Part shown: positions 9,703-34,537 of the stretch, in pieces
Position numbering within the stretch: the first letter of the stretch is position 1
How the letters are laid out: each line of letters starts with the position of its first letter
Source: Candidatus Avimonas intestinalis
GTDB taxonomy: Bacteria > Bacillota > Clostridia > Oscillospirales > Acutalibacteraceae
Direction of reading: 5' to 3'
Length of the DNA: 64,000 bases
Assembly: GCA_904380375.1 (NCBI GenBank)
Contig: CAJFID010000006.1
Location: 1,330-65,329 of the forward strand
Notes under the pieces: generated by a model
Database searches by the model: none
What the model saw: the letters and a program-made list of their open reading frames with translations, nothing else
Told to the model about the DNA's origin: nothing
Made by a program: the position numbers and the translations under genes

Positions 9703-11325
9703 ATGGAAAACATTTATGCATTGATGATGAGCATGGCAGCGGCGCTTCTGGCTTTGCTGGGCTACATAGCGACGGAAGCGGGGTTTGCCAGGGCCAAAAA
9801 CACGGGTAACGTGATGATCAAGGCACTCACCGGCTTCTGCATCGGCGTCCCCTGTTTCCTGTTTGCGGGCCGGTATCTGGCGTTTGGAAGCGAACCCGGC
9901 GCCCGTACGCTTTTTTTCACGGCACTTGCCGCCGCGCTGGCGGTGTGTGTGTTCGCCGCCGCTGTGATGGGCCGGATGCGCTTTTCCGCTTTCTGTGTGA
10001 TGAGCGTGCTTCTTGCGGCCGTGCTTTTCCCGCTTACCGTGCGCGCCAGCAGCTTTTTTACGGCGCAGTTCGGCTTGCTGGACCCCATGAATTTCGGCCT
10101 TTTGGGTACGGCGGCCGGGACGGCCGGTTTTATGGGCGCGAAAGTCCTGGGCGCACGCCTGGGTAAATACACGAAGGGCGGCGTGGCGCACGCCATGCCG
10201 GGCCATAATATCCCGCTCAGCCTGTGCGGCATCCTGCTGCTCTCTTTAGGCGTGGTCATTCTGGCCGGCAGCCGGGCGGTAGTAGACGGCGCCAGCGAAG
10301 ACACGCTGCTGCGCGCCATGGAGAATATGATCCTCTGCGGCGGCCTCTCGGCGCTAACGGCCCTGCTCTTTACCGCCATCCGCTACCGCAAGCCGGAGAT
10401 CACGATGACGATCAGCGCCTTTTTGACCGGCATAATCGCATCCTTCCCCGGATGTATGGGGCTTACGCCGGCTTTTTCCAGCATCTTGGGCTTTCTTTGC
10501 GGATTTTTTACCGTTCTTACCATTGAGAACATGGACTGCCATATGAATGTGGATGACCCGGCCGGGCTGTGCGGCATTACCCTGGTGGGCAGTGTGCTTG
10601 GGCTTCTCGGCAGCGGCCTCTTCTATGAAGGGCGCGGCTTGTTCGCGGGCGGCGGCTTTCAGCTCCTCGGCGCGGCGGCTCTGGGCATCCTCGCCGTAGG
10701 CATCGGCGCCGGCCTTTTCTCCGGGATTTTTACCTGGATTTTTCATTGGCTCAAAATCCTGCGCCTTACGCCTGAGCAGGAAATTGAAGGCTGCGATTTA
10801 AGCGAACACGGCATGGCGAGCGTCTACCATGATTTTGCCCTCAACCTTGACACGACCGACTGCTCAGATTCCTATCTGTACGCTGCGGAGGGCTGTGAGG
10901 AAATCGAGGAACTAGAGGCGCACAGGCCGTATGAATATCCGCCTGTGGAAGCCGGCGATCGCCAGCCCCTCACGAAGATCGAAATTGTTGCCAGGAAGGA
11001 AAAGCTTGAGCACCTCAAACGCGCACTGAATGACATCGGTATCACGGGCATGACGGTCTTCCCCGTGGCGGGCTGCGGTGTACAGAAAGGCTATAACGAG
11101 CGCTACCGCGGCGTGCCGGTTGAAATTCAGCTCCGTGCGAAAATCCGTGTGGAAGTGGTGGTGGCCAAGGTGCCCGTGGCCGAAGTAGTCAACACCGCCC
11201 GACGCGTTCTTTACTCAGGCCATGCAGGCGACGGCAAGATCTTTATCTATTCCCTCAACGATGTTGTCCGTGTTCGCACCGGCGAGAGCGGCTATGATGC
11301 TATGCAGGGCGCATCCTCCGAATAA
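9703..11325 (+). CDS. Amt-like membrane domain fused to a C-terminal P-II (GlnB/GlnK) domain
   Basis: 540 aa. Amt-like segments include EAGFARAKNTGNVMIKAL, MPGHNIPLSL and NVDDPAGLCGI. The C-terminal ~115 aa (ITGMTVFPVAGCGVQKGYNERYRG...GDGKIFIYSLNDVVRVRTGESG) form a clear P-II fold with a T-loop Tyr. Confidence 0.8.
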   Translation: MENIYALMMSMAAALLALLGYIATEAGFARAKNTGNVMIKALTGFCIGVPCFLFAGRYLAFGSEPGARTLFFTALAAALAVCVFAAAVMGRMRFSAFCVMSVLLAAVLFPLTVRASSFFTAQFGLLDPMNFGLLGTAAGTAGFMGAKVLGARLGKYTKGGVAHAMPGHNIPLSLCGILLLSLGVVILAGSRAVVDGASEDTLLRAMENMILCGGLSALTALLFTAIRYRKPEITMTISAFLTGIIASFPGCMGLTPAFSSILGFLCGFFTVLTIENMDCHMNVDDPAGLCGITLVGSVLGLLGSGLFYEGRGLFAGGGFQLLGAAALGILAVGIGAGLFSGIFTWIFHWLKILRLTPEQEIEGCDLSEHGMASVYHDFALNLDTTDCSDSYLYAAEGCEEIEELEAHRPYEYPPVEAGDRQPLTKIEIVARKEKLEHLKRALNDIGITGMTVFPVAGCGVQKGYNERYRGVPVEIQLRAKIRVEVVVAKVPVAEVVNTARRVLYSGHAGDGKIFIYSLNDVVRVRTGESGYDAMQGASSE

Positions 11326-12146: not shown

Positions 12147-12850
12147 TTAAAGAAACTTCATTCTTGATAGCGAAATAGAATGCTTGTGAATTTTCTCATA
12201 AAATAAACAGCGAGCCGCCCAACGGAGAAAAAACCGTTGTTTCGGCGGCTGTATGTTCACGCGCCAAAACAGAATATAGAAGCCTAACGGCGGTTTGAAA
12301 ATTACATTTCTACCGCCGTTTTCCTTTTGACAAAATGGGTTTTCGAAGGGTGTCTTGAGTAGTGATAAGGAAGTAATCGTATCTTGCAGGGCGGCATAGC
12401 GTGTGGCTATGCCGTTCTGCCTTCTTTGCCGTTCAATCACTTGACCGTCGTTAGGAAGATTAACTTTCCCAATAAAGTTCCATATAATTTGCACTTTCTG
12501 TCGGCGGTGGCCGCTGGACTTATCCGGCGCATGGACTATGATTTTCTTCACAAACTCATTCACTATCGTAGGGGTTAATTCTTTCACGCCCACATACTTG
12601 CGAATGACGGCGGCAAAGTTGTCAAAGTCTGCCTTGTCCTGCTCAAAGATATGAACAGCGTTTTGCTCTACCTGAACAAACTCCGTCAATTCTTTCTGCT
12701 CGGCTTTCGGCTATCCGTTTCCTTGCCTGTTCCAATGCCTTCTTGCGCCGCTTCATATCCTTTTCCATTTTCTCAAAACGCTGCTCATACACCATATCGC
12801 GAAACGAAGTAATCCCTTGCCGCGTGGGAAACGCGCCCGCAAAGCCGCTT
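12147..12850 (-). mobile_element. decayed C-terminal remnant of a large serine recombinase (DUF4368-type)
   Basis: LTPTIVNEFVKKIIVHAPDKSSGHRRQKVQIIWNFIG is the characteristic DUF4368 tail of Clostridial large serine recombinases. Upstream, 12690-12850 still translates as coiled-coil text (RFEKMEKDMKRRKKALEQARKRIAES) but in a different frame. No resolvase catalytic domain is present. Confidence 0.6.
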
Positions 12851-13069: not shown

Positions 13070-14905
13070 TCAGGCGTAATACTGGGCCTGGGCCTGCCAC
13101 ATCGCGGCGTATTCGCCGCCCTTGGCCACCAGCTCGTCGTGGGCGCCGTATTCCGCCACCCGGCCGTCCACAAAGACGGCGATCCGCTCGCTGAACCGGC
13201 AGGAGGAAAGTCGGTGGGAGATATACACCGCGGTTTTCCCCCCGATCAGGGAGTCGAAATGGGTGTAGATCTCGTATTCCGCCAGGGGGTCGAGGGCGGC
13301 GGTCGGCTCGTCGAGGATGGCGACGGGCGCATCCTTGTAAATGGCGCGGGCCAGGGCGATCTTCTGTCCCTCCCCGCCCGAGAATTGGCAGCCGTCGTCG
13401 TCAAAATAGCGGTATACCGTGGTGTGGATGCCTTTGGGAAGCGTTGCCAGCTTTTCCCCGAAGCCGGCCTTCTCCAGCGCCTCGACGACGGGGCCTTCGG
13501 GCGGGTCCTCCCGCCCGGCCAGGTTGACGTCCAGCGGATAGCTCAGGAGCATGAAATCCTGGAACACCACCGAAAACAGCCGGCGGTAGGTATCCTCGTC
13601 GTAGTCCCAGACGTCCTTGCCGTCCAGGAGGATCTGCCCCTCGGTGGGGTGGTAGAGGCGGGTCAGCAGCTTAATGAAGGTGGTTTTGCCCGCGCCGTTC
13701 CGCCCGACCACCGAGAGCCGCCGCCCCGCCTCCAGCGTCAGGGAGACATGGCGCAGGGCGTAGCTTTCCGACCCGGGGTAGCGGAAGGAGACGTCCCGGA
13801 ACTCGAAGACGTGGGGTACGCCGGGATCCGCCGGCAGGGAGCCGGAGACGGCCGCCGCCGGGTATTCTAAGAAGATTTTGCACTCGTTCATGAAGTCGGC
13901 GTTGCGCACCAGGTTGATGACCTCCCGGATGATGGCGGAAAGGCTGTCGACAAAGCTGTTGGCGGAGTTCAGCAGCGCGGTGGCCTGCCCCACCGTGAGG
14001 GAGCCGGCCAGCAGGCTCAGCCCCAGGGTGACGTACAGCACCACCTGCTGGAGGACGTTGAGCCCGTTGGTCGCCGCATCGTACCGGCTGCCGGTTTTGA
14101 CCCGCTTGTTTTCCTGCTCCCAGTCCTCCTGGATGTATTGGTCCACCCGGCCCATCAGCATATCCTGCGCGCCGTACAGCCGCAGGTCCTTGCCGAAGCG
14201 GAAGTCCTTGAGCAGGCTGAAGTAATAGCCGAAAAGGCGGTTGATGCCGACCAGCTCCTTGCGAAAACGGGCGTCCAGCTTTTGGGAGCGGGAGACTAAG
14301 AAGGTGTTGAGCGCCAGGATGGCCAGCAGCACCAGGATCAGCCAGGGGGACAGGGAGCCCAGGATGGCCAGCGTCCCCGCCAGGGTGAGCAGCCCCGACA
14401 GGATGGCGGACAGGTTGCCCGTGATGCCGGCGATCCCGCCGGAATACCAGCTCATGCCGGTTTTCGCCTTCTGCATCTGGGTCAGGACCTCCGCGTTTTC
14501 GGTGTAGGCGAAGTCCATGGTCATCGCCTTGTCCCCGATCAGGCGGTCAAAGCCGGTTTCCATCCGCAGGTTGGCCCGGTTGAGGAAGTAGGAGAGCACC
14601 TGCTTGGCCGCTTCGGCCAGCAGGCCCAGCAGCACCATCGCCGCCACCAGCCAGGCCAGCGTATCCAGCCGCTGCGCGCCCATCAGCTCGTCGATGATCG
14701 CGGCCGGGAACAGGATGCTGATAAAGGGGGCGGCGCCGTTCAGGGCGGCGTTCAGCAGGGTGAGGAAGAAATAGCTTTTCTGGATCCCCCACGCCCGGCG
14801 CAGGAAGAAGGAGAGGACGGGCAGGGCGGTTTTTAGGGTGATTTCCTGCTTTTGGCCCTTCTCCGCGCCGGCTTTCCCGGCCCTTTTGGTTTCTTTGGCT
14901 TTCAT
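13070..14905 (-). CDS. ABC exporter, fused permease/ATPase subunit
   Basis: 611 aa with an N-terminal 6-TM domain. Walker A GRNGAGKTT, signature FSGGEGQKIALARA, Walker B ILDEPTAALD. Confidence 0.9.
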   Translation of the reverse strand: MKAKETKRAGKAGAEKGQKQEITLKTALPVLSFFLRRAWGIQKSYFFLTLLNAALNGAAPFISILFPAAIIDELMGAQRLDTLAWLVAAMVLLGLLAEAAKQVLSYFLNRANLRMETGFDRLIGDKAMTMDFAYTENAEVLTQMQKAKTGMSWYSGGIAGITGNLSAILSGLLTLAGTLAILGSLSPWLILVLLAILALNTFLVSRSQKLDARFRKELVGINRLFGYYFSLLKDFRFGKDLRLYGAQDMLMGRVDQYIQEDWEQENKRVKTGSRYDAATNGLNVLQQVVLYVTLGLSLLAGSLTVGQATALLNSANSFVDSLSAIIREVINLVRNADFMNECKIFLEYPAAAVSGSLPADPGVPHVFEFRDVSFRYPGSESYALRHVSLTLEAGRRLSVVGRNGAGKTTFIKLLTRLYHPTEGQILLDGKDVWDYDEDTYRRLFSVVFQDFMLLSYPLDVNLAGREDPPEGPVVEALEKAGFGEKLATLPKGIHTTVYRYFDDDGCQFSGGEGQKIALARAIYKDAPVAILDEPTAALDPLAEYEIYTHFDSLIGGKTAVYISHRLSSCRFSERIAVFVDGRVAEYGAHDELVAKGGEYAAMWQAQAQYYA

Positions 14906-17010
14906 CCCGCCGGCACCTCCGTTTCCTTGCGATAGTATTTCGCCTGGGTTTCAAACAGCTCGGCGTAGCGGGTGGGCCGCGCCATCAGGCTGTCGTGGGT
15001 CCCCTCTTCGATCACCCGGCCGCCCTCAAGCACCGCGATCCGGTCGCAGAAGCGGGTGCTCGCCAGCCGGTGGGAGATATACAGCGCGGTCTTGCCCTGC
15101 GTCATCCCGTCGAACTGCTGGTACAGCCGTTCCTCCGCCAGGGAATCCAGCGCGGCGGTCGGCTCGTCGAGCAGGATGCAGGGGGCGTCCTTGTAAAGCG
15201 CGCGGGCCAGGGCCAGCTTGGCGCTTTCCCCGCCCGAAAGCTCCACGCCGTCCTCCCTGACGACCTTGAGCAGGCTGTGGTCGATTCCACCGGGGAGGGC
15301 GGCGATCTTTTCCCAGAGCCCGGCGGTTTGCAGGCTGCGCTCCACCCGGGGGCGGTCGACCTCCGCCGGCTCCTTCATCCCCACGTTTTCCGCCACGGTA
15401 AAGGCGAAAAGCTGGGTCTCCTGGAACACGGGGGCGAACAGGCGGAAATAGTCGGCGCGGCGGTAGTCCCGCACGTTTTTCCCGTTGAGCAGGATTTCCC
15501 CCTCGTCCGGCTCGTACAGCCGGGTCAGGAGCTTTAGGAAGGTGGATTTCCCCGCCCCGTTTAGCCCCACCACCGCCAGCCGTTCGCCGGGGCGGATGGT
15601 AAAGCTGACGTCGTGCAGCGCGTCCTGATCCTGCCCGGGGTAGCGGAAGGTGACGTGGCGGAACGCAAAGCAGAGGGGCTCGTGCAGCAGGGCGTCCGGT
15701 ACCGGCTCCCCGCCATCGGGGATGTCCGGCAGGTCGAGGAATTCGCGGTAGTCGGCGACGACCTCGTTCTGCTGGCGGATGCCGATGAGGTTGTTCATCA
15801 GACCGTTCACCGCGTTGATGAAGGTGTGGATGCCGGTGGAATACATCAGGAAATCCCCGATCAGGATCCGCCCGTTGATCACGCCGGAAATCAGGAAGAC
15901 GTAGAGCAGGATCTCCTGCAAAAGGGACAGAAAGGCGAAGGTGACCGACGCCCCCATCCACAGCCGCCAGATGCGGGACTGCCCGTCCAGCCGCCGGCGC
16001 ACCTCGGCGTCAAACTGGCCGAGCAGGAAATGCCGCAGGGAAAACAGCCGCACATCCTTGCCGAACTGGAAGTTGCTCATGGCTTCGTTGTTCAGGTACC
16101 ACAATTTCCGCCATACGGGGGAGAGGGCGTCGTTTTCCTCCTTGTCCTTCTTCCAGACTTTCCAGAGGATGACCTGGTTGACCGCGAGCAGCAGCAGGAT
16201 GGCGAGCACCAGCAGGGGGTTGAGCAGAGCGACGACTGCGCCGGCCGAAAGCAGGACCAGCAGGCTGCTCGCGCCGTTCTGGACCCGGTGCATGATCCCT
16301 TCAATGCCGACGTCGTTGCTACCTGTCGCCCGGTCGCCCTTCTGGGCCAGGTCGAGCATGTCGGGGTCCTCAAGCTTTTGGTAGTCCATGCGGATGAATT
16401 TGGCGCCCGCGCGGGCGATGAAGCGCAGACGGACGGTGACGAAGCGGGTGCCGATGTTCCACCTGGAGATGGAGCCCCAGGCCCGGGCCAGCAGCAGGAG
16501 GGCGCCGAACCCGGCGGAGTAGGCGACGACCAGGGCGGCGCTCCCGCCCATCGCCGCTTCGTTGATGATGTATTTGGGCATCAGCACCGGAATGAATTGG
16601 ATGGCGGCCGCGCACAGGATGTTGAGGGCCAGGTAGGGCAGGAGGCGGGGGTCGTACTCCCGGATGCCGGCCAGCACATACCGGATGTTGCTGAGGTTGG
16701 AATACCGCGGCTTCTTTTTCTCTTTTTTCTTTTCATTCTTTTCTGCATCCTTCTTGGGCGTCCCGGCCTCGTTCCGGGAGCCCGCCTGGGCGCCGCCGCC
16801 TTCTCCGGAGCCCTTTTTGTCCGCCGGCTGGCCCTCCTCCTCGCCCGAAGCCCTGCCGGGCGCTGGTTCCGGCGCTGGACAGGGGGAGGCGGGCGCTTCC
16901 GGAGGCTGAGCCTCGGCAGCCGGCGGGGAAGCCGCGGCCTGCGGCTCCGGCTTCTGCGGACCGGGGGAGGAGGGTGCCGCTTTGGGTGCCGGGGTTGTTT
17001 TTTCGGACAT
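14902..17010 (-). CDS. ABC exporter, fused permease/ATPase subunit with a low-complexity N-terminal extension
   Basis: Walker A GLNGAGKST, signature LSGGESAKLALARA, Walker B LLDEPTAALD. ATGA overlap with the downstream subunit. Start set at the ATG at 17010 (MSEKTTPAPK...); the track start at 17139 is a TTG. Confidence 0.85.
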   Translation of the reverse strand: MSEKTTPAPKAAPSSPGPQKPEPQAAASPPAAEAQPPEAPASPCPAPEPAPGRASGEEEGQPADKKGSGEGGGAQAGSRNEAGTPKKDAEKNEKKKEKKKPRYSNLSNIRYVLAGIREYDPRLLPYLALNILCAAAIQFIPVLMPKYIINEAAMGGSAALVVAYSAGFGALLLLARAWGSISRWNIGTRFVTVRLRFIARAGAKFIRMDYQKLEDPDMLDLAQKGDRATGSNDVGIEGIMHRVQNGASSLLVLLSAGAVVALLNPLLVLAILLLLAVNQVILWKVWKKDKEENDALSPVWRKLWYLNNEAMSNFQFGKDVRLFSLRHFLLGQFDAEVRRRLDGQSRIWRLWMGASVTFAFLSLLQEILLYVFLISGVINGRILIGDFLMYSTGIHTFINAVNGLMNNLIGIRQQNEVVADYREFLDLPDIPDGGEPVPDALLHEPLCFAFRHVTFRYPGQDQDALHDVSFTIRPGERLAVVGLNGAGKSTFLKLLTRLYEPDEGEILLNGKNVRDYRRADYFRLFAPVFQETQLFAFTVAENVGMKEPAEVDRPRVERSLQTAGLWEKIAALPGGIDHSLLKVVREDGVELSGGESAKLALARALYKDAPCILLDEPTAALDSLAEERLYQQFDGMTQGKTALYISHRLASTRFCDRIAVLEGGRVIEEGTHDSLMARPTRYAELFETQAKYYRKETEVPAG

Positions 17011-17197
17011 AGATACCACAGCCTTTCGGATCAAAGTAGGGGGCGGCAGGGCCGGAACCGGGTCCTCCGCCGGGACGGAGGGGGCCGCGCGGATGCGGAG
17101 GGACCGCGGGAAACGGCAAGGAGAAAGGAAAAAAGCCAAAACTCATGGGATAAAGCACAGGAAAATGGAAAGAATAATAAAAAAATAGGCTGCTTTA

Positions 17198-21223: not shown

Positions 21224-21304
21224 ATGCTTTTGGATTTCTATTTTAAGGAAAATTATCCAATAACAGTTTGATCGTTGATAAACACAAAAAATTTCAAAAT
21301 AGTA

Positions 21305-21332
21305 TTGACAATTCATTGGTTTATGATATACT
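21305..21332 (+). promoter_or_regulatory. putative sigma-A promoter (TTGACA-16 nt-TATACT with TG extended -10)
   Basis: -35 at 21305-21310, TG at 21324-21325 and -10 at 21327-21332. Drives the plus-strand M24-fold/EamA/ADH genes. Confidence 0.6.
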
Positions 21333-21338
21333 CATTTT

Positions 21339-21368
21339 TAGATTAACGTTAACGTTATCGATAATCTA
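21339..21368. promoter_or_regulatory. 30-bp palindromic element, copy A (TAGATTAACGTTAACGTTATCGATAATCTA), candidate operator
   Basis: Starts 6 nt after the -10 and is 26/30 self-complementary. It is 27/30 identical to 48556-48585. Confidence 0.5.
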
Positions 21369-21517: not shown

Positions 21518-22573
21518 TTGGAAACGCAGAAGAAGCTGGAACGCCTCCGGCGGTATTTGCAGGAGAACGGGATCCCGGCAGCGGTCATCAGCCGGCAGCC
21601 GAATTTTTCTTGGCTGACCGGCGGAGGGCGAGGCTTCATCGGCCTGGCGTCGGAAGCTGCCTGCGGCCGTCTTGTCGTTACAGCCGACCGGGCGGTCCTG
21701 GTGGCCAACAACATTGAAGCCGGCCGCTTGGCCGCGGAAGAGCTTCCCGCCGGCGTGTTTGCCAGTGAGATCGTCCCCTGGGCGCAGGACGGGGAGATCC
21801 CGGCGGTGATCCGGGGCCTGTGCCCGGACGGCTACCGCGCGGACGCGGAGCTGGAGCCCTTCTTCTTAAGCCAGCGCACCGTCTTGTGCCCGGAGGAAGC
21901 CGGCCGCTTCCGCCTTTTGGGCCGGGAGGTAGACAGGGCGATGTGGGAAGCGGCGCGGGGCGCCTCTTGCGGGATGTCGGAATTTGAAATGGCCGGCCGC
22001 CTGTCCGCCGCCCTTTGGAGCCGGGGGATTGAGCCGATCACCCTGTTGATCGCGGCGGACGGCCGGAGCCGGAGGGTGAGGCATTATGTCCCCACCGGCG
22101 CTTTGGCCCGGCAGGGGTTCCTCTGCTCGGTTTGCGCCCGCCGGGGAGGGCTGGTTGCCTCCGCCACCCGCATCCTGGCGTTCCGGCCGGACTTTGCACA
22201 GGAGTATGAACGGCTGCTTGAAGTAGAGGCCGCCGCAATCGGGGCAACGGTTCCCGGCCGGACGATGGGGGAGGTTTTCCGGATCATCGCCGCGGCTTAC
22301 GAGAAGGCGGGGTTCCCGAGGGAAATCCGGCGGCATCACCAGGGCGGGCTGACCGGCTACCAGCCCCGCGAGATCCGGGCGGATGCGGAAACGGCGCATG
22401 AGATCTGCGCGGGCGAGGCATACGCCTGGAACCCCTCCTGCGAGGGGGCGAAATGCGAGGACACCCTCCTGGTTACAGCGGAGGGGGCGGAGATCCTGAC
22501 CGCCGGCGGCGGTTGGCCGTCCCGGTTGGTTGCGGGGAGGGAGCGGCCGGCTGTGCTGCGGCTGTATGGCTGA
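21518..22573 (+). CDS. M24 (creatinase/Xaa-Pro peptidase) fold protein
   Basis: N-terminal LETQKKLERLRRYLQENGIPAAVIS and C-terminal pita-bread-like region. Start assigned to the TTG at 21518 behind GGGAGAGGG; the in-frame ATG at 21437 has no RBS. The start is uncertain. Confidence 0.65.
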   Translation: METQKKLERLRRYLQENGIPAAVISRQPNFSWLTGGGRGFIGLASEAACGRLVVTADRAVLVANNIEAGRLAAEELPAGVFASEIVPWAQDGEIPAVIRGLCPDGYRADAELEPFFLSQRTVLCPEEAGRFRLLGREVDRAMWEAARGASCGMSEFEMAGRLSAALWSRGIEPITLLIAADGRSRRVRHYVPTGALARQGFLCSVCARRGGLVASATRILAFRPDFAQEYERLLEVEAAAIGATVPGRTMGEVFRIIAAAYEKAGFPREIRRHHQGGLTGYQPREIRADAETAHEICAGEAYAWNPSCEGAKCEDTLLVTAEGAEILTAGGGWPSRLVAGRERPAVLRLYG

Positions 22574-23546
22574 CCGGAGGAGCCCGGCGACCGGGCCGGG
22601 CGCCGGGCTGGATGGCCGCTCCGCCGGCCTGCTGCTGGCCCTTTCCCTGATCTGGGCGGTGTATTACCTGTTCAGTCAGAGGCTGGTGGCGGCGCTCACC
22701 TGCTTCCCCGCCGGCCTGGCCATCCGGGTGCTCACGTTTTTCCTCCTGCCGCTCCTTGCGGCGGCCGGCCGGCGCATCCGGGAGCTGAAGCCCCCGCCGC
22801 TGCGGATGATGCCGGTGATGATGCTGATTGGGCTGCTGGGTTTTCTGCTTGACTTTACGGCGTTTTTAGGCCTGCGGCATGAGAGTGCCGGCGGCGGCAC
22901 CGTCCTGCTGAAAACCGACGTCCTTATGGCGGCGGTAATCGGCGCCGTGGTCTGCAAGGAAAAATTCCGGCTCCGGGACGTCGGGGCGATCCTATTGATG
23001 TTCAGCGGCGTCCTGCTGACCATGGATGTCTTTCATTTGAGGCTTTCGGGGCTTAACGACCTGTTTTTTGTCCTCAGCGCCTTTTTCGTTACGCTCAACG
23101 CCTTTGTCATCCAGTGGGCGCTCCACCACCCCCGCACCCCGGTCAAGGGGATGACGATTGGGTTTTACAACAATTTTTACGCGATGCTCCTATTTGGCGC
23201 CGCCGTCCTGATCAGCGGGACGGGGGAGGAGCTCGCCCAGGGGATATCCCGTCCGGACGTATGGGGCGTGGCGCTGGCAGCGGGCCTGGGCCAAAGCTTT
23301 GTCTATGTATTTTATTACGCTGCGCTGGGCCGCCAGCCGGTCTGGATCGTCAAGGTGTTCCTGCTGCTGATGCCGGTGTTTACCACCGCCATAGAGGCAG
23401 CCGCCTCGTGGCTCTTAACAGGGGAGTCCGGGCTGAGCTGGTCCCGCTTGGCGGGGATGGCTCTGGTGCTGGCCGGGGCGGCGGTCCTGCTCCTGAAAAA
23501 GAGGCCGGCGGCCTCCGCATCCCCGCCCCCGCAAAAAGGGGAATAA
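22566..23546 (+). CDS. EamA/DMT-family transporter
   Basis: About 326 aa with ~10 TM helices in two repeats. The ATG at 22566 overlaps the upstream stop. Confidence 0.75.
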   Translation: MADRRSPATGPGAGLDGRSAGLLLALSLIWAVYYLFSQRLVAALTCFPAGLAIRVLTFFLLPLLAAAGRRIRELKPPPLRMMPVMMLIGLLGFLLDFTAFLGLRHESAGGGTVLLKTDVLMAAVIGAVVCKEKFRLRDVGAILLMFSGVLLTMDVFHLRLSGLNDLFFVLSAFFVTLNAFVIQWALHHPRTPVKGMTIGFYNNFYAMLLFGAAVLISGTGEELAQGISRPDVWGVALAAGLGQSFVYVFYYAALGRQPVWIVKVFLLLMPVFTTAIEAAASWLLTGESGLSWSRLAGMALVLAGAAVLLLKKRPAASASPPPQKGE

Positions 23547-23578
23547 ACGAAACGAGGGAAACGAAAGGGAGAAAGCCA

Positions 23579-24733
23579 ATGGAATTTTCGTGTTATCTGC
23601 CGGTGCGCATCCGGTTCGGCTCCGAGGCGCTGCGGCAGCTTGCCGGCCGGGCGGCCCCGCCGGTGCTGATTGTCAGCACCGAAGCCCTGACGCGGCTGGG
23701 TATCACCGGCAAAGCGGCGAAAGCCTGCGGCGGCGCGCCGCTGATTTACGACCAGGTGGAAGCCAACCCCACGGTGCATACGGTAGAAAGCCTGGCCTGC
23801 CTGATCCGGGAAAAGCGGGTCGCTACGGTCGTAGCGGTCGGCGGCGGAAGCAGTATGGACGCCGCCAAGGCCGCCTCCTGCCTGGCGGCGGGGGAGGCCG
23901 ACCTGCGAGGATGCCTTTACCGGGGCGATCCCCTTCCCCGCCGGACGGTGTCCCTCCTGCTGGTTCCCACGACGGCGGGGACGGGGAGCGAGGTCACCAA
24001 CGTGGCGGTCCTTTCCGACCCGGAGGGGAACCGGAAAACCCCGCTGGTTTCCGACCATTTGTGGGCCGATGCGGCGATCCTGGCCCCGGAGATGACGCAG
24101 ACCGCCCCGCCGGGCGTGACGGCCTCCACCGGCTTTGACGCGCTGATCCACGCTGTTGAGGCGTACTGGGCCGTCTCTACCCAGCCGATTAGCCGGGCGC
24201 TCGGCCTGGAAGCCGCTCGCCTGGTCTGCCACAACCTGCGCCGCGCCTATGACGACGGCAGCGATTTGCAGGCGCGGGAGGGGATGCTCCTGGGCAGCCT
24301 TTTGGCGGGCATGGCCTTTTCCCAAACCCGCACGACCGTCCTGCACGCGGCGAGCTTCCCCCTCACCAGCGAATTCCATGTTGACCATGGCCGGGCCTGC
24401 GCGGTCAACCTGCTGCCCGTCCTGCGCTACGTCCGGCGGTATATCCCGGGGCCGATGGAGGCCCTGGCTGCATACTGCGGATACGCCGGCTTTGCGGAGT
24501 GGGCGGCGATGCTGGAGGAGTTGATGGCCCACTGCCGGATGCCTCTTAGCCTAGGCGAGGTAGGGGTCACAGCGGCGGATATCCCCCATCTGGCGAAGGT
24601 GACCGTGAGCGCCGCCATCGCCGGGCTTACCCCGGCGCCGATCAATGAGACCGTCGTACAGAGCCTGCTGGCAGACAATTTGTACCGCAGGAAAGGAGGG
24701 GCCACACCGCCCGAGGATTCGGGCAATGCGTAA
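23579..24733 (+). CDS. iron-containing alcohol dehydrogenase family protein
   Basis: 384 aa from the ATG at 23579 (RBS GAAAGGGAG). Motifs AVGGGSSMDAAKA, LVPTTAGTGSEVT and GFDALIHAVEAY. Confidence 0.85.
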   Translation: MEFSCYLPVRIRFGSEALRQLAGRAAPPVLIVSTEALTRLGITGKAAKACGGAPLIYDQVEANPTVHTVESLACLIREKRVATVVAVGGGSSMDAAKAASCLAAGEADLRGCLYRGDPLPRRTVSLLLVPTTAGTGSEVTNVAVLSDPEGNRKTPLVSDHLWADAAILAPEMTQTAPPGVTASTGFDALIHAVEAYWAVSTQPISRALGLEAARLVCHNLRRAYDDGSDLQAREGMLLGSLLAGMAFSQTRTTVLHAASFPLTSEFHVDHGRACAVNLLPVLRYVRRYIPGPMEALAAYCGYAGFAEWAAMLEELMAHCRMPLSLGEVGVTAADIPHLAKVTVSAAIAGLTPAPINETVVQSLLADNLYRRKGGATPPEDSGNA

Positions 24734-24799
24734 AAAGGACGCCGGCAGTTTCAAACAGTTCAGAAAATGAGAGAGCGATTTGGAGGGAGGAATCCAATT

Positions 24800-26011
24800 G
24801 TGAAAAGAGCGCTTACCTTGTGCCTGGCTTTGGCGTTCGCCGTTTTATCGGCCGTTCCCGGGATTTGCGCCGAAGCCGCCGATACGCCGCGGCTGGTTGC
24901 GCACTATGAGTTTGCGGACGGCGCCGTAGGGGAAGACTCCGCCGGCTCGGGCAGCCTCAAGGCCGTCGGCACCGACGGCGCCTCGGAGGCGGTGCCCAAG
25001 CTGGTGGAAGGGCCCAACGGGATGAAGGCGGTGGAATTTGACCAGACCTACGCCCTCGTCACCGACAAGCAGGATGTGACCGATACCCTGACCGAGTTTA
25101 CCGTCAGCTTCCTGATCAAGGCCAACGAGGCCGGGGAGATGCGCAACAACGTGTTCTCTACCGGCCTGGGCAACGGCAACCACCCCGACCATAGCGGGAT
25201 CAATATGCTGCTCAACCCCACCAAGGGGTATCCGGAGATCCGGCTGTACGGCGGCTCCGCCCCCAACAACGGGGAGAAGTGGGGGACGGATCAGTTCAAA
25301 AACGACGACGGGGAGGCCGGCGCCGCCAATTGGAAAAACCGAGAAAATCCCTATGTCTACGATACGAGCAAGTGGTACCGCGTGGTGCTGACCGTGAAGC
25401 TGGCCGACGGCAGCGCTTCCGGCTTCCAGAGCTGCTATATTGAGGCGATGGACGCAGTGCAGTCCAAGGCGGATTTCCGGGAAAACGACAATTACTACGT
25501 CGCCGCCCTGCCCAACAACCTGACCAGCATCCAAAACGAGAAATACCCGCTGTCGATCGGCGGTACCTACAATTATTGGGTAAGCGGCAGCAACCCGGAG
25601 ACCTTCTACAACGAAGCGGGCAAATTTTACGGGATGTTCATCGGCCAGCTGGCGGATTTCCGCATTTACGACAAAGCGCTGACCGACGACCAGATTGTGG
25701 AGCTCTTTGTCAGCAACCAGCTGGAGGGGGAGCAGGCGGCGGAAACCGACCCGCCGGCCGATACCCCGGAAGAGACGGATCCGGTCACTGAGCGGACCGA
25801 AAGCGATCCGCCCGCGCAAGGGACGGAGGACCGCCCCACAGAGCCTTCGGGTACGACGGCCGGGGAAGAAGAGGGCCTTAGCCCCGGGGCGATCGCGGGC
25901 ATTGCAGCGGCGGTGGTCGTGGTCGCGGCAATCGGCGTGGCGGCCGCGGTGCTGGCCAGCCGCAAAAGGCCCAAGGGAGACGGCACGCCTCCGAATTCCG
26001 GCGAGATTTAG
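24800..26011 (+). CDS. surface-anchored LamG/concanavalin-A-like lectin-fold protein (paralogue 1)
   Basis: GTG at 24800 behind GGAGGGAGG, then a signal peptide. LamG-type ends LVAHYEFADG...DSAGSG and LADFRIYDKALTDDQIVELF. P/T/E-rich linker, C-terminal TM helix and basic tail. Confidence 0.72.
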   Translation: MKRALTLCLALAFAVLSAVPGICAEAADTPRLVAHYEFADGAVGEDSAGSGSLKAVGTDGASEAVPKLVEGPNGMKAVEFDQTYALVTDKQDVTDTLTEFTVSFLIKANEAGEMRNNVFSTGLGNGNHPDHSGINMLLNPTKGYPEIRLYGGSAPNNGEKWGTDQFKNDDGEAGAANWKNRENPYVYDTSKWYRVVLTVKLADGSASGFQSCYIEAMDAVQSKADFRENDNYYVAALPNNLTSIQNEKYPLSIGGTYNYWVSGSNPETFYNEAGKFYGMFIGQLADFRIYDKALTDDQIVELFVSNQLEGEQAAETDPPADTPEETDPVTERTESDPPAQGTEDRPTEPSGTTAGEEEGLSPGAIAGIAAAVVVVAAIGVAAAVLASRKRPKGDGTPPNSGEI

Positions 26012-26097
26012 CGCCGGAAGGTCTGTGCAAGCTTTGGCGGTTGCTTGTAAATCGAACCGCTTAAAAATTTAGGGTGAAGCAAAGGAGAGAAACGGTC

Positions 26098-27291
26098 ATG
26101 AAAAAACGCACGATTTCCTGCGCGGTCCTGTCCGCCTGCCTGCTGTTCGGCGGCGCCACCGCGGCGATGGCGGAGACCCCAGCCCCGAACCTGGTGGCCC
26201 ATTACACCTTTGCCGATGCAAGCAACGTCGGCAAGGATTCCGCCGGCTCGGACGATATGACGGTGGTCAGCGCCAGCCTGCAGGAGGACGCCGGCCTGGC
26301 CAAGGTCGTGGACGGCCCGGACGGGATGAAGGCGCTGGAGTTTGACCAGTCCTACGCGCTGCGCACCGACGCCGACGACGTGCTGGACGGCCTCAAGGAG
26401 TTCACCATTACCTACCTGGTGGCGGCCAACGACGCGGGGGAGCTCAAGTACAACATGTTTTCCACCGGCTTGGGCAACGGCAACAACATCCAGAACAGCG
26501 GCATCAACGCCCTGATGGATTTTGCCAAGGATGAAAGCGTCCGCACCGGTTCTCCGGACGTCCGCCTGTACGGCAGCGAAAACGTCGGCGAGAAGTGGAC
26601 GGCCGACCAGCGCAAGAACGACGACGGCAAAAACGGCCGGAGCTTCTGGATCGACCGGATCGGCGGCGATATTGACGCGCCGGTGCCGACGTCCTATGCG
26701 GCCGGCGAATGGTACCGCATTGTCATCACCGTCAAGCTGAGCGACGGCACCAAGACCAGCGAGGAGCAGCAGCTGTGGCCGAACGGGAACCAGGGCGACG
26801 CCTTCTATCCCGGCACCGGCACGCAGAGCGTGTACATTGAAAAAATGGACGGCATCCAGGCCAAAAGCGACCTGGTCGAGAGCCAGAATTTCTATGAAAC
26901 CGTGCTGCCGTATGACCTGACCAGCATCAAAAACGAGAAATACGGCCTCACCCTCGGCGCGGCCTACGACGTCGGGAAAGACGCCTTCAACACCTCCGCC
27001 GGCGCCAATTACAGCATGTTCATCGGGAAGATGGCGGATTTCCGCATCTATGACAAGGCGCTGACCCAGGACCAGATCGTCAGCCTGTTCCAGAACAACG
27101 AGCTGACCGACACCAGCGGGCAGGAGGACGACACGACGCCGGTTACCAAGCCTCAAACGCCGGCCACTCCCTCCGGCGACGGCAACCCGTCCACCGGCGT
27201 GGAAACCAGCCTGCTGCCGTTCCTGGCGCTGATCCCTGCGGCGGCCGTAGTCGGCGTCCTGGCGGTCCGCCGCCGCAAGGCCGAAAAGTAA
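26098..27291 (+). CDS. surface-anchored LamG/concanavalin-A-like lectin-fold protein (paralogue 2, sortase-signal-like C-terminus)
   Basis: ATG at 26098 behind AAAGGAGAG, then a signal peptide. LVAHYTFADA...DSAGSD and MADFRIYDKALTQDQIVSLF. The C-terminus reads NPSTG, hydrophobic stretch, RRRKAEK. Confidence 0.72.
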   Translation: MKKRTISCAVLSACLLFGGATAAMAETPAPNLVAHYTFADASNVGKDSAGSDDMTVVSASLQEDAGLAKVVDGPDGMKALEFDQSYALRTDADDVLDGLKEFTITYLVAANDAGELKYNMFSTGLGNGNNIQNSGINALMDFAKDESVRTGSPDVRLYGSENVGEKWTADQRKNDDGKNGRSFWIDRIGGDIDAPVPTSYAAGEWYRIVITVKLSDGTKTSEEQQLWPNGNQGDAFYPGTGTQSVYIEKMDGIQAKSDLVESQNFYETVLPYDLTSIKNEKYGLTLGAAYDVGKDAFNTSAGANYSMFIGKMADFRIYDKALTQDQIVSLFQNNELTDTSGQEDDTTPVTKPQTPATPSGDGNPSTGVETSLLPFLALIPAAAVVGVLAVRRRKAEK

Positions 27292-27362
27292 CGGCCGGAT
27301 TGTCCAAGCTTTCCCCGCCGCGCCGGTGCGCGGCATGAAACCTCCTTTCACCAGACGGCGAA

Positions 27363-27386
27363 GGGCGGCGGGCCGGCCCGCCGCCC
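27363..27386. terminator. perfect 24-nt GC palindrome GGGCGGCGGGCC/GGCCCGCCGCCC after the LamG genes
   Basis: Read directly from the sequence. It would form a ~10-bp all-GC stem. There is no U-tract, so a terminator role is tentative. Confidence 0.3.
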
Positions 27387-27477
27387 GGCCGCCCTACCAA
27401 GACGGGATCCCCGGGGGACGGCGTTGCCTCCGTTCCCCGGGCCGGTTCCCCATTACAATAGGAGAGAAGAATACCAT

Positions 27478-28569
27478 ATGAATCCGTTTCGCGTAGCGGT
27501 GCTCGGTGCGGGCGACCGCGGGAAAGCCTACAGCAAGGCGCTCAAACAGCTGGAAAACGACTGCGTGCTGGTCAATGTCTGCGACATCCTGGACGACCGG
27601 GCGCAGAAAGCCAAAGAGGATTTTGGCTTTGAAGAAACCTTTTACGATTACCGGGACGCCGTGGATACAAATGACATCGACATCGTTATTGTCTGCACCC
27701 CGGCGTATTTCCACAGCGAGATGGCGATGTACGCCTTGAACCGCAAAAAGCATGTCCTATGTGAAAAACCGATGGACCTGTCCTTTGAAAAAGCGAGCGA
27801 AATGGTGGCTTGCGCCAAACGAAACGGCCGTGTGCTGGCCATCGGCCACCAATATCATAATTTTATGAACTTCTGCAAGCTGAAAAAGGTATTTGAGCAG
27901 GGGGCGGTGGGCCGGCCGGTCCTGATGCGGTGCGAGGATACCCGCCCCGTCCGCCCGAAAATCGCCATGCACGACGCCGAATTCGGCAACGGCGGGCCGC
28001 TTAACGATATGTCCTGCCATTTTACCGACCTGATGCGGTGGTACTTTGACGCGGATCCGGTCAGCGTCTGCGCCAAAGGGCTGGTGCTGGCGGAAAACAG
28101 CCCCACGCTGGCATCCATCCCCAACAAAGCGGTGGATACGGTGAACATCCTTGTCACGTTTGCTTCCGGCGACGTCGGCGTCATTACCGTGAGCTGGGCG
28201 TATCCCAAAAACAAGCATTGGCGCCAGCAGGTATCCGCCTACGGCCCGGCCGGCACGGTCGAAGTGGCCGGCGACGCCGTGACCGCCTATCTTGAGGACG
28301 ACAACAACGTTACCTATGAACTGGACAGCCGGGAACGGGATGAGACGGAGAACCCGGAAAAGACGGTGCTCCGCCATTTCCTTGACGAGATCAACGGCGT
28401 GGGCAAGGTGCAGGTGACGGGGGAGGACGCGCTCAAGGCCTTTGCGGTATCCCTGGCCGCCGTCAAGTCCTCCCGGCTGGGCCGGCCGGTCTCCCTGCAG
28501 GAGATATACAACGAGAAGCCCAGCATCTACAGCGCGATGCACGAAAAAGAGGAGGGAAGGACATGGTAA
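27478..28569 (+). CDS. Gfo/Idh/MocA family oxidoreductase
   Basis: ATG at 27478 behind AGGAGAG. Motifs FRVAVLGAGDRGKAY (Rossmann) and HVLCEKP. Confidence 0.85.
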   Translation: MNPFRVAVLGAGDRGKAYSKALKQLENDCVLVNVCDILDDRAQKAKEDFGFEETFYDYRDAVDTNDIDIVIVCTPAYFHSEMAMYALNRKKHVLCEKPMDLSFEKASEMVACAKRNGRVLAIGHQYHNFMNFCKLKKVFEQGAVGRPVLMRCEDTRPVRPKIAMHDAEFGNGGPLNDMSCHFTDLMRWYFDADPVSVCAKGLVLAENSPTLASIPNKAVDTVNILVTFASGDVGVITVSWAYPKNKHWRQQVSAYGPAGTVEVAGDAVTAYLEDDNNVTYELDSRERDETENPEKTVLRHFLDEINGVGKVQVTGEDALKAFAVSLAAVKSSRLGRPVSLQEIYNEKPSIYSAMHEKEEGRTW

Positions 28570-29333
28570 AAATCGCCTGCCAGACCATTGTGTTTGGGGA
28601 ACATATCAAAGAAAACATCAAGACCATCCTCCCGGCCGTAAAAAAGGCCGGGTACGACGGGGTGGAAATCGGCGTCCGCCATCTGGACAAGGCCCGTCCG
28701 GACTATTACCGCGAGCTGCTCCGGCGCAACGGGCTGGAGCTCCTGGCCATCCATGTGGGCGGCAACTTTTTGGAGCCGGATTCCGTACAGAAGCAGATTG
28801 ATACCTTTGAAGACACCCTGCGTTTTGCCTGCGAGCTGGAAATCCCTTACCTGTTTATTTCCGGATTTCATAAAAAGGGCAAGACCAAGGAGGATTACCA
28901 GGAGGAGGCGGCCGTCTATAACCGCTTAGGGGAAATGTGCCGCAGCCAGGGCCGGAAGCTTTGCTTCCACAACCATGACTGGGAGATCTGGAACGGGGAA
29001 ATGGGGTTCCGTACCCTGATGGCCAATACCGACCCGGAGGTATTCCGCCTGGTGCCGGACGTGGGCTGGGTGTTCCGCGGCGGAGCCGACCCGGTGACGC
29101 TCCTTACCGAATTCAAGGACCGCATTGAGGCGCTGCATTTTAAGGAATTTACCGCGGACAATTCCTTTACGGAGCTGGGGGAGGGCGTCGTGCCGTTCCG
29201 GGAGGTATACCAGGCGTTCCACGGCCTCCGGGATCCGCTGTGGCTGGTGGCCGAGCAGGACAAGACCGTCAAGGGCCCCGAGGCCAGCGCGGCGGAAAAC
29301 TACCGCTATCTTGCCGGCCTCTGCGGCCGATAA
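28563..29333 (+). CDS. sugar phosphate isomerase/epimerase (xylose-isomerase-like TIM barrel)
   Basis: 256 aa. KKAGYDGVEIG, LCFHNHDWE and DVGW are typical of the AP_endonuc_2/xylose isomerase-like family. Overlaps the upstream stop by 7 nt. Confidence 0.82.
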   Translation: MVKIACQTIVFGEHIKENIKTILPAVKKAGYDGVEIGVRHLDKARPDYYRELLRRNGLELLAIHVGGNFLEPDSVQKQIDTFEDTLRFACELEIPYLFISGFHKKGKTKEDYQEEAAVYNRLGEMCRSQGRKLCFHNHDWEIWNGEMGFRTLMANTDPEVFRLVPDVGWVFRGGADPVTLLTEFKDRIEALHFKEFTADNSFTELGEGVVPFREVYQAFHGLRDPLWLVAEQDKTVKGPEASAAENYRYLAGLCGR

Positions 29334-29345
29334 GGGGGGCGCCCG

Positions 29346-30662
29346 ATGAAATATCCGGTAACCATCGGCGTCGTGATGCTCGCGCGCAACACCTTTGATT
29401 ACGAAGCCGCCCGCAGCCTGTATGCGCAGATCCGCCGGGACCTGCAAAGCGTGCCCAACGCGTCGTTTGTCTGCGCGGACGACCTGGTGTTTGAAGTCCC
29501 CGACCTGGACGCGCCGATCAAAAAGATCCAAAAGGCGGGGGTGGATGGCCTGGCGATTATCAGCGGCACCTTCCATCTGGGCCATCTGGCGCTGGAGATC
29601 GCCAAGCGGACTGACGTGCCGCTGCTGCTCTGGGGCCTGCCCGAGTTGCCATACAACGGCGGGAAGATCCGGCTGAATTCGGTATGCGGCGTCAACCTGA
29701 ACGCCTCCAACCTGTATAAGGCGGGGCGGGACGATTTTCATTACTGCGTGTCGGATAAGATCGACCAGGATTGGGTCGATGCCGTGCGGATCCGCGCCAA
29801 GCTGAAAGCGGCGAAAATCGGCCTGCTGGGCTTCCGAGCGCACGGGTTTTTCAACCTTGCGTTTGACGAGCTTTCCCTGTACCAAGAAACCGGCGTCCTC
29901 CTTGACCATTTCGAGCTGGCCGATTTGTGGAACGAGCCGGTCGAACCCGAATCGGTGCAGGCGCGCAGGGCGCAGATCGCCGGGCTGTTTGACCTTTCGG
30001 GGGTGAGCGGCGCCCAGGTGCAGAAGGTAGCGGAGCTTTGCGAACGCTTCCGGGCGTTTATGGACCGCCGGGGCTTGTCCGGCCTGGCGGTGCGCTGCTG
30101 GCCGGAATTTGCCGCCGGCTACGGCGTGTCCCCCTGCGCGGCCATGTCCGTTTTGCAGGGCGAGGGTTATATAATCGGCTGCGAGGGGGATGTGCAGGGG
30201 GTCATTTCCCAGTTGATGCACACCGCCATCGGGGTGGAGCAGCCCTTCCTGGCCGATCTGTCGCAGGTCGATTTTGAGGACGATTCCGCCCTGATGTGGC
30301 ACTGCGGTGTGGCGCCCTGCGGCCTTTGGGACGAGTGCAGCGTCCGCTCCCTGGATTCCTATTACGCGGGAGGCCGGGGCGTTACCGCCGATTTCGTGCT
30401 TAAGAGCGGACGGGTCCAGGTGCTGCGGATGGATTTTGCCCGGGGCCGGTCCCGGCTTTTCGTGGGCTGCGGCGAGGCGTTTTCGGTCCCCAAGGAGCTC
30501 AAGGGTACCTATGTCAAGGTCGTATTTGACAAGCCTGTAGAGGAAGTGCTGGATACCGTCATACGCAACGGGATTGCCCATCACGTCTCCCTGGCGTATG
30601 GGGACAACGTCCGGCCGCTTGCCCTGTATGCCCGCATGAACGGCATGAAGTGGATTGAATGA
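29346..30662 (+). CDS. L-fucose/L-arabinose isomerase family protein (FucI-like)
   Basis: 438 aa. The pattern GLLGFRAHGF...IIGCEGDVQGVISQL...MWHCG resembles the COG2407 isomerase family. Confidence 0.75.
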   Translation: MKYPVTIGVVMLARNTFDYEAARSLYAQIRRDLQSVPNASFVCADDLVFEVPDLDAPIKKIQKAGVDGLAIISGTFHLGHLALEIAKRTDVPLLLWGLPELPYNGGKIRLNSVCGVNLNASNLYKAGRDDFHYCVSDKIDQDWVDAVRIRAKLKAAKIGLLGFRAHGFFNLAFDELSLYQETGVLLDHFELADLWNEPVEPESVQARRAQIAGLFDLSGVSGAQVQKVAELCERFRAFMDRRGLSGLAVRCWPEFAAGYGVSPCAAMSVLQGEGYIIGCEGDVQGVISQLMHTAIGVEQPFLADLSQVDFEDDSALMWHCGVAPCGLWDECSVRSLDSYYAGGRGVTADFVLKSGRVQVLRMDFARGRSRLFVGCGEAFSVPKELKGTYVKVVFDKPVEEVLDTVIRNGIAHHVSLAYGDNVRPLALYARMNGMKWIE

Positions 30663-30677
30663 GAAAGGCGGTATAGC

Positions 30678-31505
30678 ATGCAGGAAACAGAACGCAAACG
30701 GCTGAATGAGAAATGCGCGGATATCCGCCGCTTGATTATTGAGGAGATCGGGCGTCTGGGGGTCGGCCATATCGGCGGCTGCCTTTCGATTGTGGAGGCG
30801 CTGGTCGTGCTGTATTACCGGCAGATGCATATTGACCCCCGGAACCCGTCCCTGCCCGACCGGGACCGCTTCGTCCTTTCCAAGGGGCATGCCGGCCCGG
30901 CGCTGTACGCCGTGCTGGCCGACCGCGGCTACTTTGACAAGGAGTGGCTGTGGACCCTCAACCAGCCGGGAACCAGGCTGCCCAGCCACTGCGACCGGCT
31001 GCGGACCCCCGGCGTGGATATGACCGCCGGTTCCCTGGGCCAGGGCTTTTCGGTGGCGGTCGGTATGGCCAAAGCCGCCCGGATGGACGGGAAGACCCAC
31101 TGGGTCTATGCCATGATCGGGGACGGCGAAAGCCAGGAGGGTCAGATTTGGGAGGCCGCCCAGTTTGCCGGCCAGCATAAGCTGCGCAACCTGATCGCCA
31201 TGATGGATTACAACAACATGCAGATTGACGGCCTGGTTTCCGACCAGCTCGACGTCCAGCCGGCAGTGCAGCGCTGGGAATCCTTCGGCTTCTCCTGCGA
31301 GACGGTGGACGGGCACGACGTGGCGGCGATTGACGGGGCGATACAGCGTGCCAAAGCCGCCGGCCGCCCCTGCATGATCGTCCTGCGCACCATTAAGGGC
31401 AAGGGCGCCTATTTTGCCGAGGGAAAGGTGGAATCCCACAATATGACCGTGACCGAGGAGATGTGGAGGTCCTGTATGAAAGGAGGGGGCCGCGATGTGG
31501 GATAA
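30678..31505 (+). CDS. transketolase, N-terminal (TPP-binding) subunit
   Basis: 275 aa. Motifs SKGHAGPALYAVLA, GSLGQGFSVAVGMA and GDGESQEGQIWEA. Confidence 0.9.
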   Translation: MQETERKRLNEKCADIRRLIIEEIGRLGVGHIGGCLSIVEALVVLYYRQMHIDPRNPSLPDRDRFVLSKGHAGPALYAVLADRGYFDKEWLWTLNQPGTRLPSHCDRLRTPGVDMTAGSLGQGFSVAVGMAKAARMDGKTHWVYAMIGDGESQEGQIWEAAQFAGQHKLRNLIAMMDYNNMQIDGLVSDQLDVQPAVQRWESFGFSCETVDGHDVAAIDGAIQRAKAAGRPCMIVLRTIKGKGAYFAEGKVESHNMTVTEEMWRSCMKGGGRDVG

Positions 31506-32448: not shown

Positions 32449-32453
32449 ACGCG

Positions 32454-32936: not shown

Positions 32937-32952
32937 AAGGAGGATATCCCAG

Positions 32953-34461: not shown

Positions 34462-34537
34462 CCCGGCCCGGTGCGGGAAAGCGCCGGGCCGGGAGGCCGC
34501 CGCTCCCCGCCGCCGCGGGAGCCGGCGCCCGCTTTTT
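34462..34537 (+). terminator. intercistronic hairpins between the two SBP genes (possible partial terminator)
   Basis: 10-bp stem CCCGGCCCGG / CCGGGCCGGG (34462-34493), then GCGGG...CCCGC followed by TTTTT (34515-34537). Confidence 0.3.

Follow-up and report, generated by a model that had tools for sequence, protein, structure and literature searches.

The window analysed here, a 64-kb stretch of DNA from Candidatus Avimonas intestinalis, was mapped with a GC3-based ORF filter combined with Pfam and NCBIfam scans, and carries an unbroken plus-strand gene series that runs from an M24-like gene through two BNR/Asp-box paralogues. Two 30-bp palindromes are found in the window, copy 1 (operator O1, 21339-21368, TAGATTAACGTTAACGTTATCGATAATCTA) and copy 2 (operator O2, 48556-48585, TAGATTAACGATAAGGTTATCGTTAATCTA), both listed as composite sites and neither assigned to a strand. 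As the first-pass annotation had read them, the two copies are identical at 27 of 30 positions and differ at three, which was confirmed directly; no third match at ≤3 mismatches occurs in the 64-kb window, and none was expected by chance (0 in 100 shuffles). Self-complementarity reaches 26/30 in copy 1 and 28/30 in copy 2, where it rises to 34/36 over the extended palindrome at 48553-48588, and no similarity between the copies was found beyond these 30-36 bp.

Promoters and genes at the two sites

The promoter of the first operon (21305-21332, plus strand) has the form TTGACA-16-TATACT with a TG-extended -10 element (11/12 match). Copy 1 begins 6 nt past this -10 and thus covers the expected transcription start, predicted at ~21339-21340, so that the site spans approximately +1 to +30 of the transcript; relative to the start codon it lies at -179 to -150. 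The operon predicted to be regulated from here (21518-34428, plus strand) was delimited by gene spacing and by a terminator-like hairpin with T-run (34511-34532, plus strand; a consensus match only), which probably closes it, and is supported by Pfam/NCBIfam matches and by synteny in the relatives L131/L132. Its genes encode, in order, an M24-like protein, an EamA protein, an Fe-ADH, two LamG-like proteins, a GFO/IDH/MocA protein, a xylose-isomerase-like TIM protein, an AGE/SftI-like isomerase, a split transketolase, RpiB and a 491-aa protein of unknown function. The M24-like gene was taken to start at the TTG at 21518 because its orthologues are ~352 aa long. Within the operon (22530-24733 and 29346-32936), an AGE-fold isomerase, a split transketolase, RpiB, an Fe-ADH and an EamA exporter occur together, a gene set reminiscent of transketolase-type catabolism of a sulfosugar or unusual sugar; the best NCBIfam match of the isomerase is sulfoquinovose isomerase SftI, with 201 bits, far under the cut-off of 700.

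Copy 1 is flanked on its other side, away from the M24-like gene, by a minus-strand GH43 gene. The divergent promoter-like site on its side (21252-21281, minus strand; TTATCA-18-GATAAT), both hexamer regions of which fall in blocks conserved with L131, is ~60-110 bp away from O1 and does not overlap it. The earlier suggestion that GH43 might share the regulon receives no support from this geometry, its conserved promoter being clear of the operator.

After the first operon follow genes for a 935-aa solute-binding protein, two permeases, an NHL/TPR/Yip1 protein, a DUF5696 protein and two more permeases, and then the gene for a LacI-family regulator (45555-46547, plus strand, 330 aa; PF00356 with PF00532/PF13377). 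The insertion of the 684-aa NHL/TPR/Yip1 protein and the DUF5696 protein between two ABC permease pairs (39157-43477) is an unusual order that is kept in L120 and L121. The LacI gene is preceded by a promoter of its own (45499-45526, plus strand; TTGAAA-16-TAAAAT with TG), with no operator unit overlapping it. Of the four distinct sequences from close orthologues, three (L120, L121 and L122/L123) keep the promoter block TTGAAAG...TATGTTAAAATA, which is not evident in L124. A GH2 glycosidase gene (46563-48362, plus strand) starts 15 nt past the end of the LacI gene, and two paralogous BNR/Asp-box (CBM9-related) genes follow (48804-52482, plus strand), the Pfam matches of their orthologues including CBM9_1. 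The strong bidirectional terminator-like hairpin after BNR2 (52507-52539, 14-bp stem) is the end of this lacI-GH2-BNR1-BNR2 unit.

The Pfam/NCBIfam gene map agrees with the earlier placement of copy 2 between the LacI-GH2 unit and the Asp-box/CBM9 genes. Copy 2 forms an AT-rich island in a GC-rich gap of 441 bp, ~190 bp 3' of GH2, ~220 bp 5' of the BNR genes and ~2 kb from the LacI gene. A sigma-70 scan gave no promoter-like site near copy 2, and no terminator was found between GH2 and BNR1; the BNR genes (48804-52482) are the presumed targets regulated via O2. Hence, the classic repressor-operator geometry proposed in the first-pass annotation holds for copy 1 and not for copy 2, which has no recognisable promoter.

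Several other features of the window were recorded. Tandem paralogue pairs with ~67-74% DNA identity comprise LamG-like 1/2 (24767-27291), BNR 1/2 (48804-52482) and two ABC ATPase-permease fusions (13070-17139). In a single 540-aa ORF (9703-11325), an ammonium transporter domain is followed by a P-II (GlnK-like) domain at the C-terminus. The minus strand also has a 180-aa ORF (12147-12689) in a low-codon-bias segment (11.3-13.1 kb); its only match is DUF4368, the domain with which large serine recombinases typically end, and it is probably what is left of a mobile element. Downstream of the BNR terminator, a surface-polysaccharide biosynthesis cluster occupies the minus strand (52594-63993), with two UDP-GlcNAc 2-epimerases, dehydratases/epimerases, a hexapeptide acyltransferase, GT4 glycosyltransferases, a flippase and a Wzy-like polymerase, and its codon bias falls toward the window end.

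Anatomy of the 30-bp element

The general pattern of the 30-mer, TAG-ATTAWC·GWTAAC-GTTAWC·GWTAAT-CTA (dots at the CG centres), consists of a pair of CG-centred 12-bp palindromes whose centres are 12 bp apart; with conserved flanks it becomes two 16-bp units, AYRTTAWC·GWTAAYRT, offset by 12 bp and overlapping by 4 bp. In O1 these units are 21340-21355 (central CG at 21347/8) and 21352-21367 (central CG at 21359/60), and in O2 they are 48557-48572 (centre 48564/5) and 48569-48584 (centre 48576/7). The CG-centred unit consensus, (T/A)AC-ATTAWC·GWTAAT-GT(A/T), is 16-18 bp long (unit matrix AYRTTAWCGWTAAYRT), and in the lineage of the window its flank is AG...CT, the lineage-specific form (A)AG-RTTAACG being common to copy 1, copy 2 and the sites of relatives. 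No further unit at ≤3 mismatches was found in the other intergenic gaps of the 64-kb window or at the LacI promoter.

Operators of the LacI family are overwhelmingly even palindromes of 16-22 nt with a central CG (PMC4052901, Ravcheev et al. 2014). The unit matches at 21340, 21352, 48557 and 48569 are even 16-nt palindromes with central CG and follow this rule. The 30-mer as a whole lies outside it, because the centre of copy 2 is GG, a centre step that is rare (1 of 69 sites among the matches listed). We initially entertained, and dropped, a single 30-bp palindrome bound symmetrically at its centre, and the two-unit reading was adopted because 26 of the 29 regulator-adjacent double sites have TG/CA as their centre step (CG in the remaining 3), because the middle register fits the unit worse (2-3 mismatches, 2 in O1) than the CG-centred registers do (1-2 mismatches, 1 each in O1), because isolated units are common, and because the intergenic DNA of close orthologues shows units in other arrangements. 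Among 48 further units in subgroup loci, seed sites excluded, 32 are isolated, many of them perfect 18-bp palindromes such as TACATTAACGTTAATGTA; where further units are paired, 12 bp is the commonest spacing (5/8), with single cases of 6, 21 and 33 bp. These comparisons show a unit that would be a canonical LacI-type operator standing alone, and a 30-mer that would be an overlapping tandem of two. Thus, the length of 30 bp, which had appeared odd for a LacI operator, is explained by two overlapping 16-bp CG-centred units at an offset of 12 bp. This tandem layout typifies the subgroup and has a precedent in E. coli GntR.

Longer arrangements occur in L004, L011, L013, L014, L093 and L128 (160-195), where arrays of at least three 12-bp units or up to six consecutive RTTAAY hexamers are seen, the L128 array having CG at one junction only; the behaviour of the motif is therefore that of a hexamer-periodic array and not of a site of fixed length. 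Operator-like units also lie within coding DNA, in the GFO/IDH/MocA orthologue of L131 (15843-15866) and near the BNR start of L124 (5288-5299), and the GFO gene of the window contains a weaker operator-like 10-mer (28001-28010); such coding-region units may reflect chance runs of codons (N-I-N-V-N) or be internal sites.

The element and its probable LacI subgroup in other genomes

Reference genomes, one per species, were scanned with ATTANCGNTAANNTTANCGNTAAT, and at least 119 loci matched. Among the matches listed, 69 carry A/T at the N positions and 50 do not. Matches with C/G at these positions resemble coding repeats or chance, and the A/T-class matches form a coherent class, from Clostridia, Paenibacillaceae (Cohnella, Paenibacillus), Spirochaetes and a few Actinobacteria and others, with the typical site TAC-ATTAWCGWTAAYRTTAWCGWTAAT-GTA. 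When the proteins of the window were searched by tblastn, LacI was the only one commonly encoded near the motif (40 loci among the matches listed). Sites of the A/T class associate with its homologues: again among the matches listed, a homologue lies in the same locus of ≤8 kb for 35/69 A/T-class sites versus 5/50 others (Fisher p = 2e-6), and for 27 A/T-class sites the homologue's start (18) or stop (9) is no more than 350 bp away. Each reference genome has at most two matching loci among those listed, and two are present in Cohnella sp. WGS1546, Howiella and HRGM_Genome_3484.

The product of 45555-46547 scores above cut-offs for PF00356 (48 bits), PF00532 and PF13377, i.e. an HTH_LacI domain and a periplasmic-binding-protein-like effector domain, and its best PDB relatives are CelR, CcpA and PurR. 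It is the only DNA-binding regulator that the Pfam/NCBIfam scans recognised in the 64-kb window. No NCBIfam equivalog was reached (68.8 bits against a cut-off of 433 for NF011563, and 144.7 against 400 for NF052440), and the protein falls outside the orthologous group of E. coli GntR. Its recognition helix is VNSVSRALK and its hinge ASSMRSG; the corresponding head N[TS][VI]S[RHC]AL.. and hinge A.S[LM]R.G are common to the motif-adjacent homologues and to all 120 database homologues, and the few LacI genes beside non-A/T sites have canonical-like heads (e.g. STVSRVLN / ARGL). The motif is thus most likely the operator of a distinct LacI-family subgroup (N[TS]VSRALK, ASS[LM]RSG) that includes the 45555-46547 protein. 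This large subgroup with the NTVSRALK / ASSLRSG head ranges over Clostridia, Paenibacillaceae, Spirochaetes and some Actinobacteria, and appears to be uncharacterised experimentally; a literature search with motif strings returned only primers and unrelated text, and the operator was not found in print in the papers searched.

In a complementary approach starting from the protein, six diverse subgroup members on long contigs were chosen blind to the motif and their loci were scanned. The motif was present in five of the six, in intergenic DNA beside the regulator or a neighbouring transporter/enzyme operon, and the double form with 12-bp offset at ≤3 mismatches was present in four of the six, versus 0.004 loci expected (500 shuffles); no motif was found in the remaining locus, L126. 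Two perfect copies of the double form occur in L129. In L125 a single unit lies 6 nt past the -10 of the regulator's own promoter, with the spacing seen at copy 1, and the promoter of the next operon has a double unit directly against it; in L128 one unit overlaps a -10. In L127, a Spirochaetia MAG, a single operator unit lies in the intergenic region between the subgroup LacI gene and a divergent operon (2280-4833) with GFO/IDH/MocA, Creatinase_N/M24, EamA and M20 peptidase genes; this M24-like/EamA/GFO trio compares with window positions 21518-23546 and 27424-28569 and may be a recurring regulated module.

Both sites of the window leave footprints in relatives. An orthologue of the M24-like protein (69% identity) sits in a syntenic operon in L131/L132, a locus that is L114 in the reference set and comes from a human-gut 'Eubacteriales' MAG. 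The region upstream of this gene has otherwise diverged from that of the window, and the main conserved island, besides the divergent promoter blocks, is TTGACAATTCAT...TATACT + 6 nt + GAGATTAACGATAACGTTATCGATAAT. Hence, double site, promoter and 6-nt offset are all kept. At the other site, the loci of close LacI orthologues (69-79% identity; L120-L124) keep the order perm-perm-LacI-GH2, and the full 30-mer is absent from them even at 8 mismatches. The post-GH2 spacer contains one unit in L120 and two units 21 bp apart in L121/L123, and no unit was detected in this gap in L122 and L124; the adjacency of LacI, GH2 and unit is thus kept in L120, L121 and L123 and not in L122 and L124, and the 12-bp double form after GH2 is not kept in the closest relatives. 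In a four-way alignment of post-GH2 spacers, AAGRTTAACGAT, the left unit of O2, is the only invariant island. In total, three independent comparative tests, i.e. the co-localisation of motif and homologue across phyla, the presence of the motif in protein-chosen loci and the footprints of both sites, support the LacI gene at 45555 as the candidate repressor named in the first-pass annotation, its binding being putative.

Regulatory model, alternatives and known systems

The sequence architecture, the promoter overlap of copy 1, the conservation of both positions and the co-occurrence of motif and regulator are observed features of this system, and we consider it likely that each 30-mer is a double operator of a LacI-family repressor, most probably the 45555-46547 product. 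In the proposed mechanism, repressor dimers would occupy the site when the inducing sugar is absent. At copy 1, bound repressor would block initiation or escape at the strong promoter of the ~13-kb M24-like/EamA/Fe-ADH/.../transketolase operon, since the site covers approximately +1 to +30. Copy 2 has no recognisable promoter and is inside the lacI-GH2-BNR unit, and may therefore act as a roadblock, which is its likeliest role: bound repressor would keep transcription that starts at the lacI-GH2 promoter, which has no operator, from running on into the BNR genes. Alternatively, it would repress a weak promoter missed by the scan. Binding of the inducer to the sugar-binding domain would then release both sites. 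Two LacI-type dimers with centres 12 bp apart may clash; the double operator could be either occupied simultaneously or bound in alternative registers. The binding of both sites by the 45555-46547 product, the number of dimers, the roadblock and the inducer are thus what we infer from the comparative data.

The sites could instead be operators of a different regulator encoded outside the window, either a same-subgroup paralogue or a member of another family, with the adjacent LacI protein controlling something else. Such a regulator would be compatible with a view of the genome that covers 64 kb, with the presence of more than one match or subgroup member in some genomes, and with the lack of a unit at the LacI gene's own promoter, which is atypical for the LacI family, in which 72% of the regulators are autoregulated (PMC4052901). 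Nevertheless we regard it as rather improbable: the LacI gene is the only regulator gene in the window and is 2 kb from copy 2, its adjacency to GH2 and the unit persists in the three relatives named above (not in L122 and L124), both copies share the (A)AG-RTTAACG flank with the relatives' sites, and adjacency of motif and regulator is the rule in the subgroup. 

A role in RNA was also considered, with copy 1 as a 5'-terminal stabilising stem-loop and copy 2 as a processing site or 3' stabiliser. Copy 1 does begin at the predicted +1, and copy 2, which is probably inside a transcript, folds to a 16-bp stem (-21 kcal/mol, z = -8.2); however, the fold of copy 1 is weak (-5.2 kcal/mol, z = -1.4), and the long stem cannot be formed by the single units of relatives. 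Moreover, nothing preserves the stem, because the variable W positions pair in only 17/29 and 14/29 of the 29 regulator-adjacent sites, with no covariation, and the primary sequence is conserved across phyla, unlike that of a structure-only element. The stems are AT-rich, with no T-run and no Rfam match, and are neither intrinsic terminators nor structured RNAs by these measures. RNA hairpins are thus a very improbable explanation of the palindromes, and a secondary RNA effect may exist at copy 2. Still harder to credit is a small dispersed repeat of the REP/MITE type, or two recombination sites at the ends of a 27-kb island, as might be suspected from near-identical palindromes that flank a 27-kb same-strand carbohydrate cluster. 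The repeat reading put forward in the first-pass annotation is not supported by two copies in 64 kb with no further intergenic unit, by at most two loci per reference genome (among the matches listed), by the lack of likeness beyond 30-36 bp, or by relatives that keep the site positions while the unit arrangement varies; for recombination, neither an integrase nor a transposase was found within the interval or next to it. A mobile-element boundary was likewise rejected, as there are no recombinase genes at the interval and the only remnant, the DUF4368 ORF at 12147-12689, is 9 kb away.

Under the double-operator model, the sites tie the M24-like/EamA/Fe-ADH/AGE-like isomerase/split transketolase/RpiB operon to the BNR/CBM9 and GH2 genes through what would be one sugar-responsive switch, and the linked gene set narrows the substrate search. 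The operator consensus, a 16-18-bp unit or a 12-bp-offset pair, would apply to a widespread, unstudied LacI subgroup of gut and soil Firmicutes and of Spirochaetes, and the regulons of many uncharacterised glycan-utilisation clusters could be predicted from it. The overlapping layout with its 12-bp offset would also be a natural test case for whether two LacI-type dimers can share one site, and in what way, a question left open by Ravcheev et al. 2014. A joint and more demanding reading, in which the subgroup routinely works on hexamer-periodic (RTTAAY)n operators with two simultaneous dimers and the second site serves as an intra-operon roadblock, we hold to be possible but doubtful. If it is true, two dimers at 12-bp centres would abut and bind cooperatively, a mode for which the LacI family has no structural precedent yet, and the second site would uncouple the BNR genes from constitutive lacI-GH2 transcription.

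Like canonical LacI, PurR and CcpA, the system combines an HTH_LacI and a sugar-binding domain with even palindromic units having a central CG, and as for canonical LacI/GalR regulators, a site (copy 1) overlaps the promoter or transcription start and the regulator gene is within the regulated sugar cluster. It differs from them in three respects: the overlapping double form, elsewhere an exception, is common in the subgroup of the window; the LacI gene's own promoter has no operator; and copy 1, at the distance from the start codon given above, is beyond the usual range of -140 to -30. Multiple LacI-family sites are found for ~20% of operons, and intragenic sites are documented (PMC4052901). 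Like the roadblock sites of E. coli lacO2 in lacZ and PurR in purB, copy 2 comes after a promoter and two genes, without a terminator in between or a recognisable promoter for itself, whereas it is intergenic and the known ones are intragenic, and the roadblock in the window is a prediction only.

The double overlapping LacI-type operator is a known but rarer arrangement. Upstream of 110 operons, LacI-family sites form overlapping pairs spaced by ~13 bp, a layout whose functional example is E. coli GntR at gntKU (PMC4052901). Published GntR sites are ATGTTACCGATAACAG, with the consensus ATGTTACCCGTAACAT (PMC10450161). In the gntK control region of E. coli MG1655 we found ATGTTACCGATAACAGTTACCCGTAACAT, a 29-bp composite of two GntR 16-mers at an offset of 13 bp. 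The 16-bp RTTA-N4-TAAY unit and the overlapping-tandem layout are alike in the two systems, whereas the offset is 12 bp in the window versus 13 bp in gntK, and the inner positions of the window unit are A/T (WCGW) versus C/G-rich in GntR. The regulators are not orthologous (on the E. coli GntR model, with its cut-off of 433, the window protein reaches ~69 bits), their heads differ (TKMTVSRFLRN / NRAPDIL in GntR, SVNSVSRALKD / NSLASSM in the window), and the targets would serve glycan use in the window versus gluconate use for GntR. By analogy, the window element would work like the GntR/gntKU operator while belonging to another, apparently uncharacterised, LacI subgroup.
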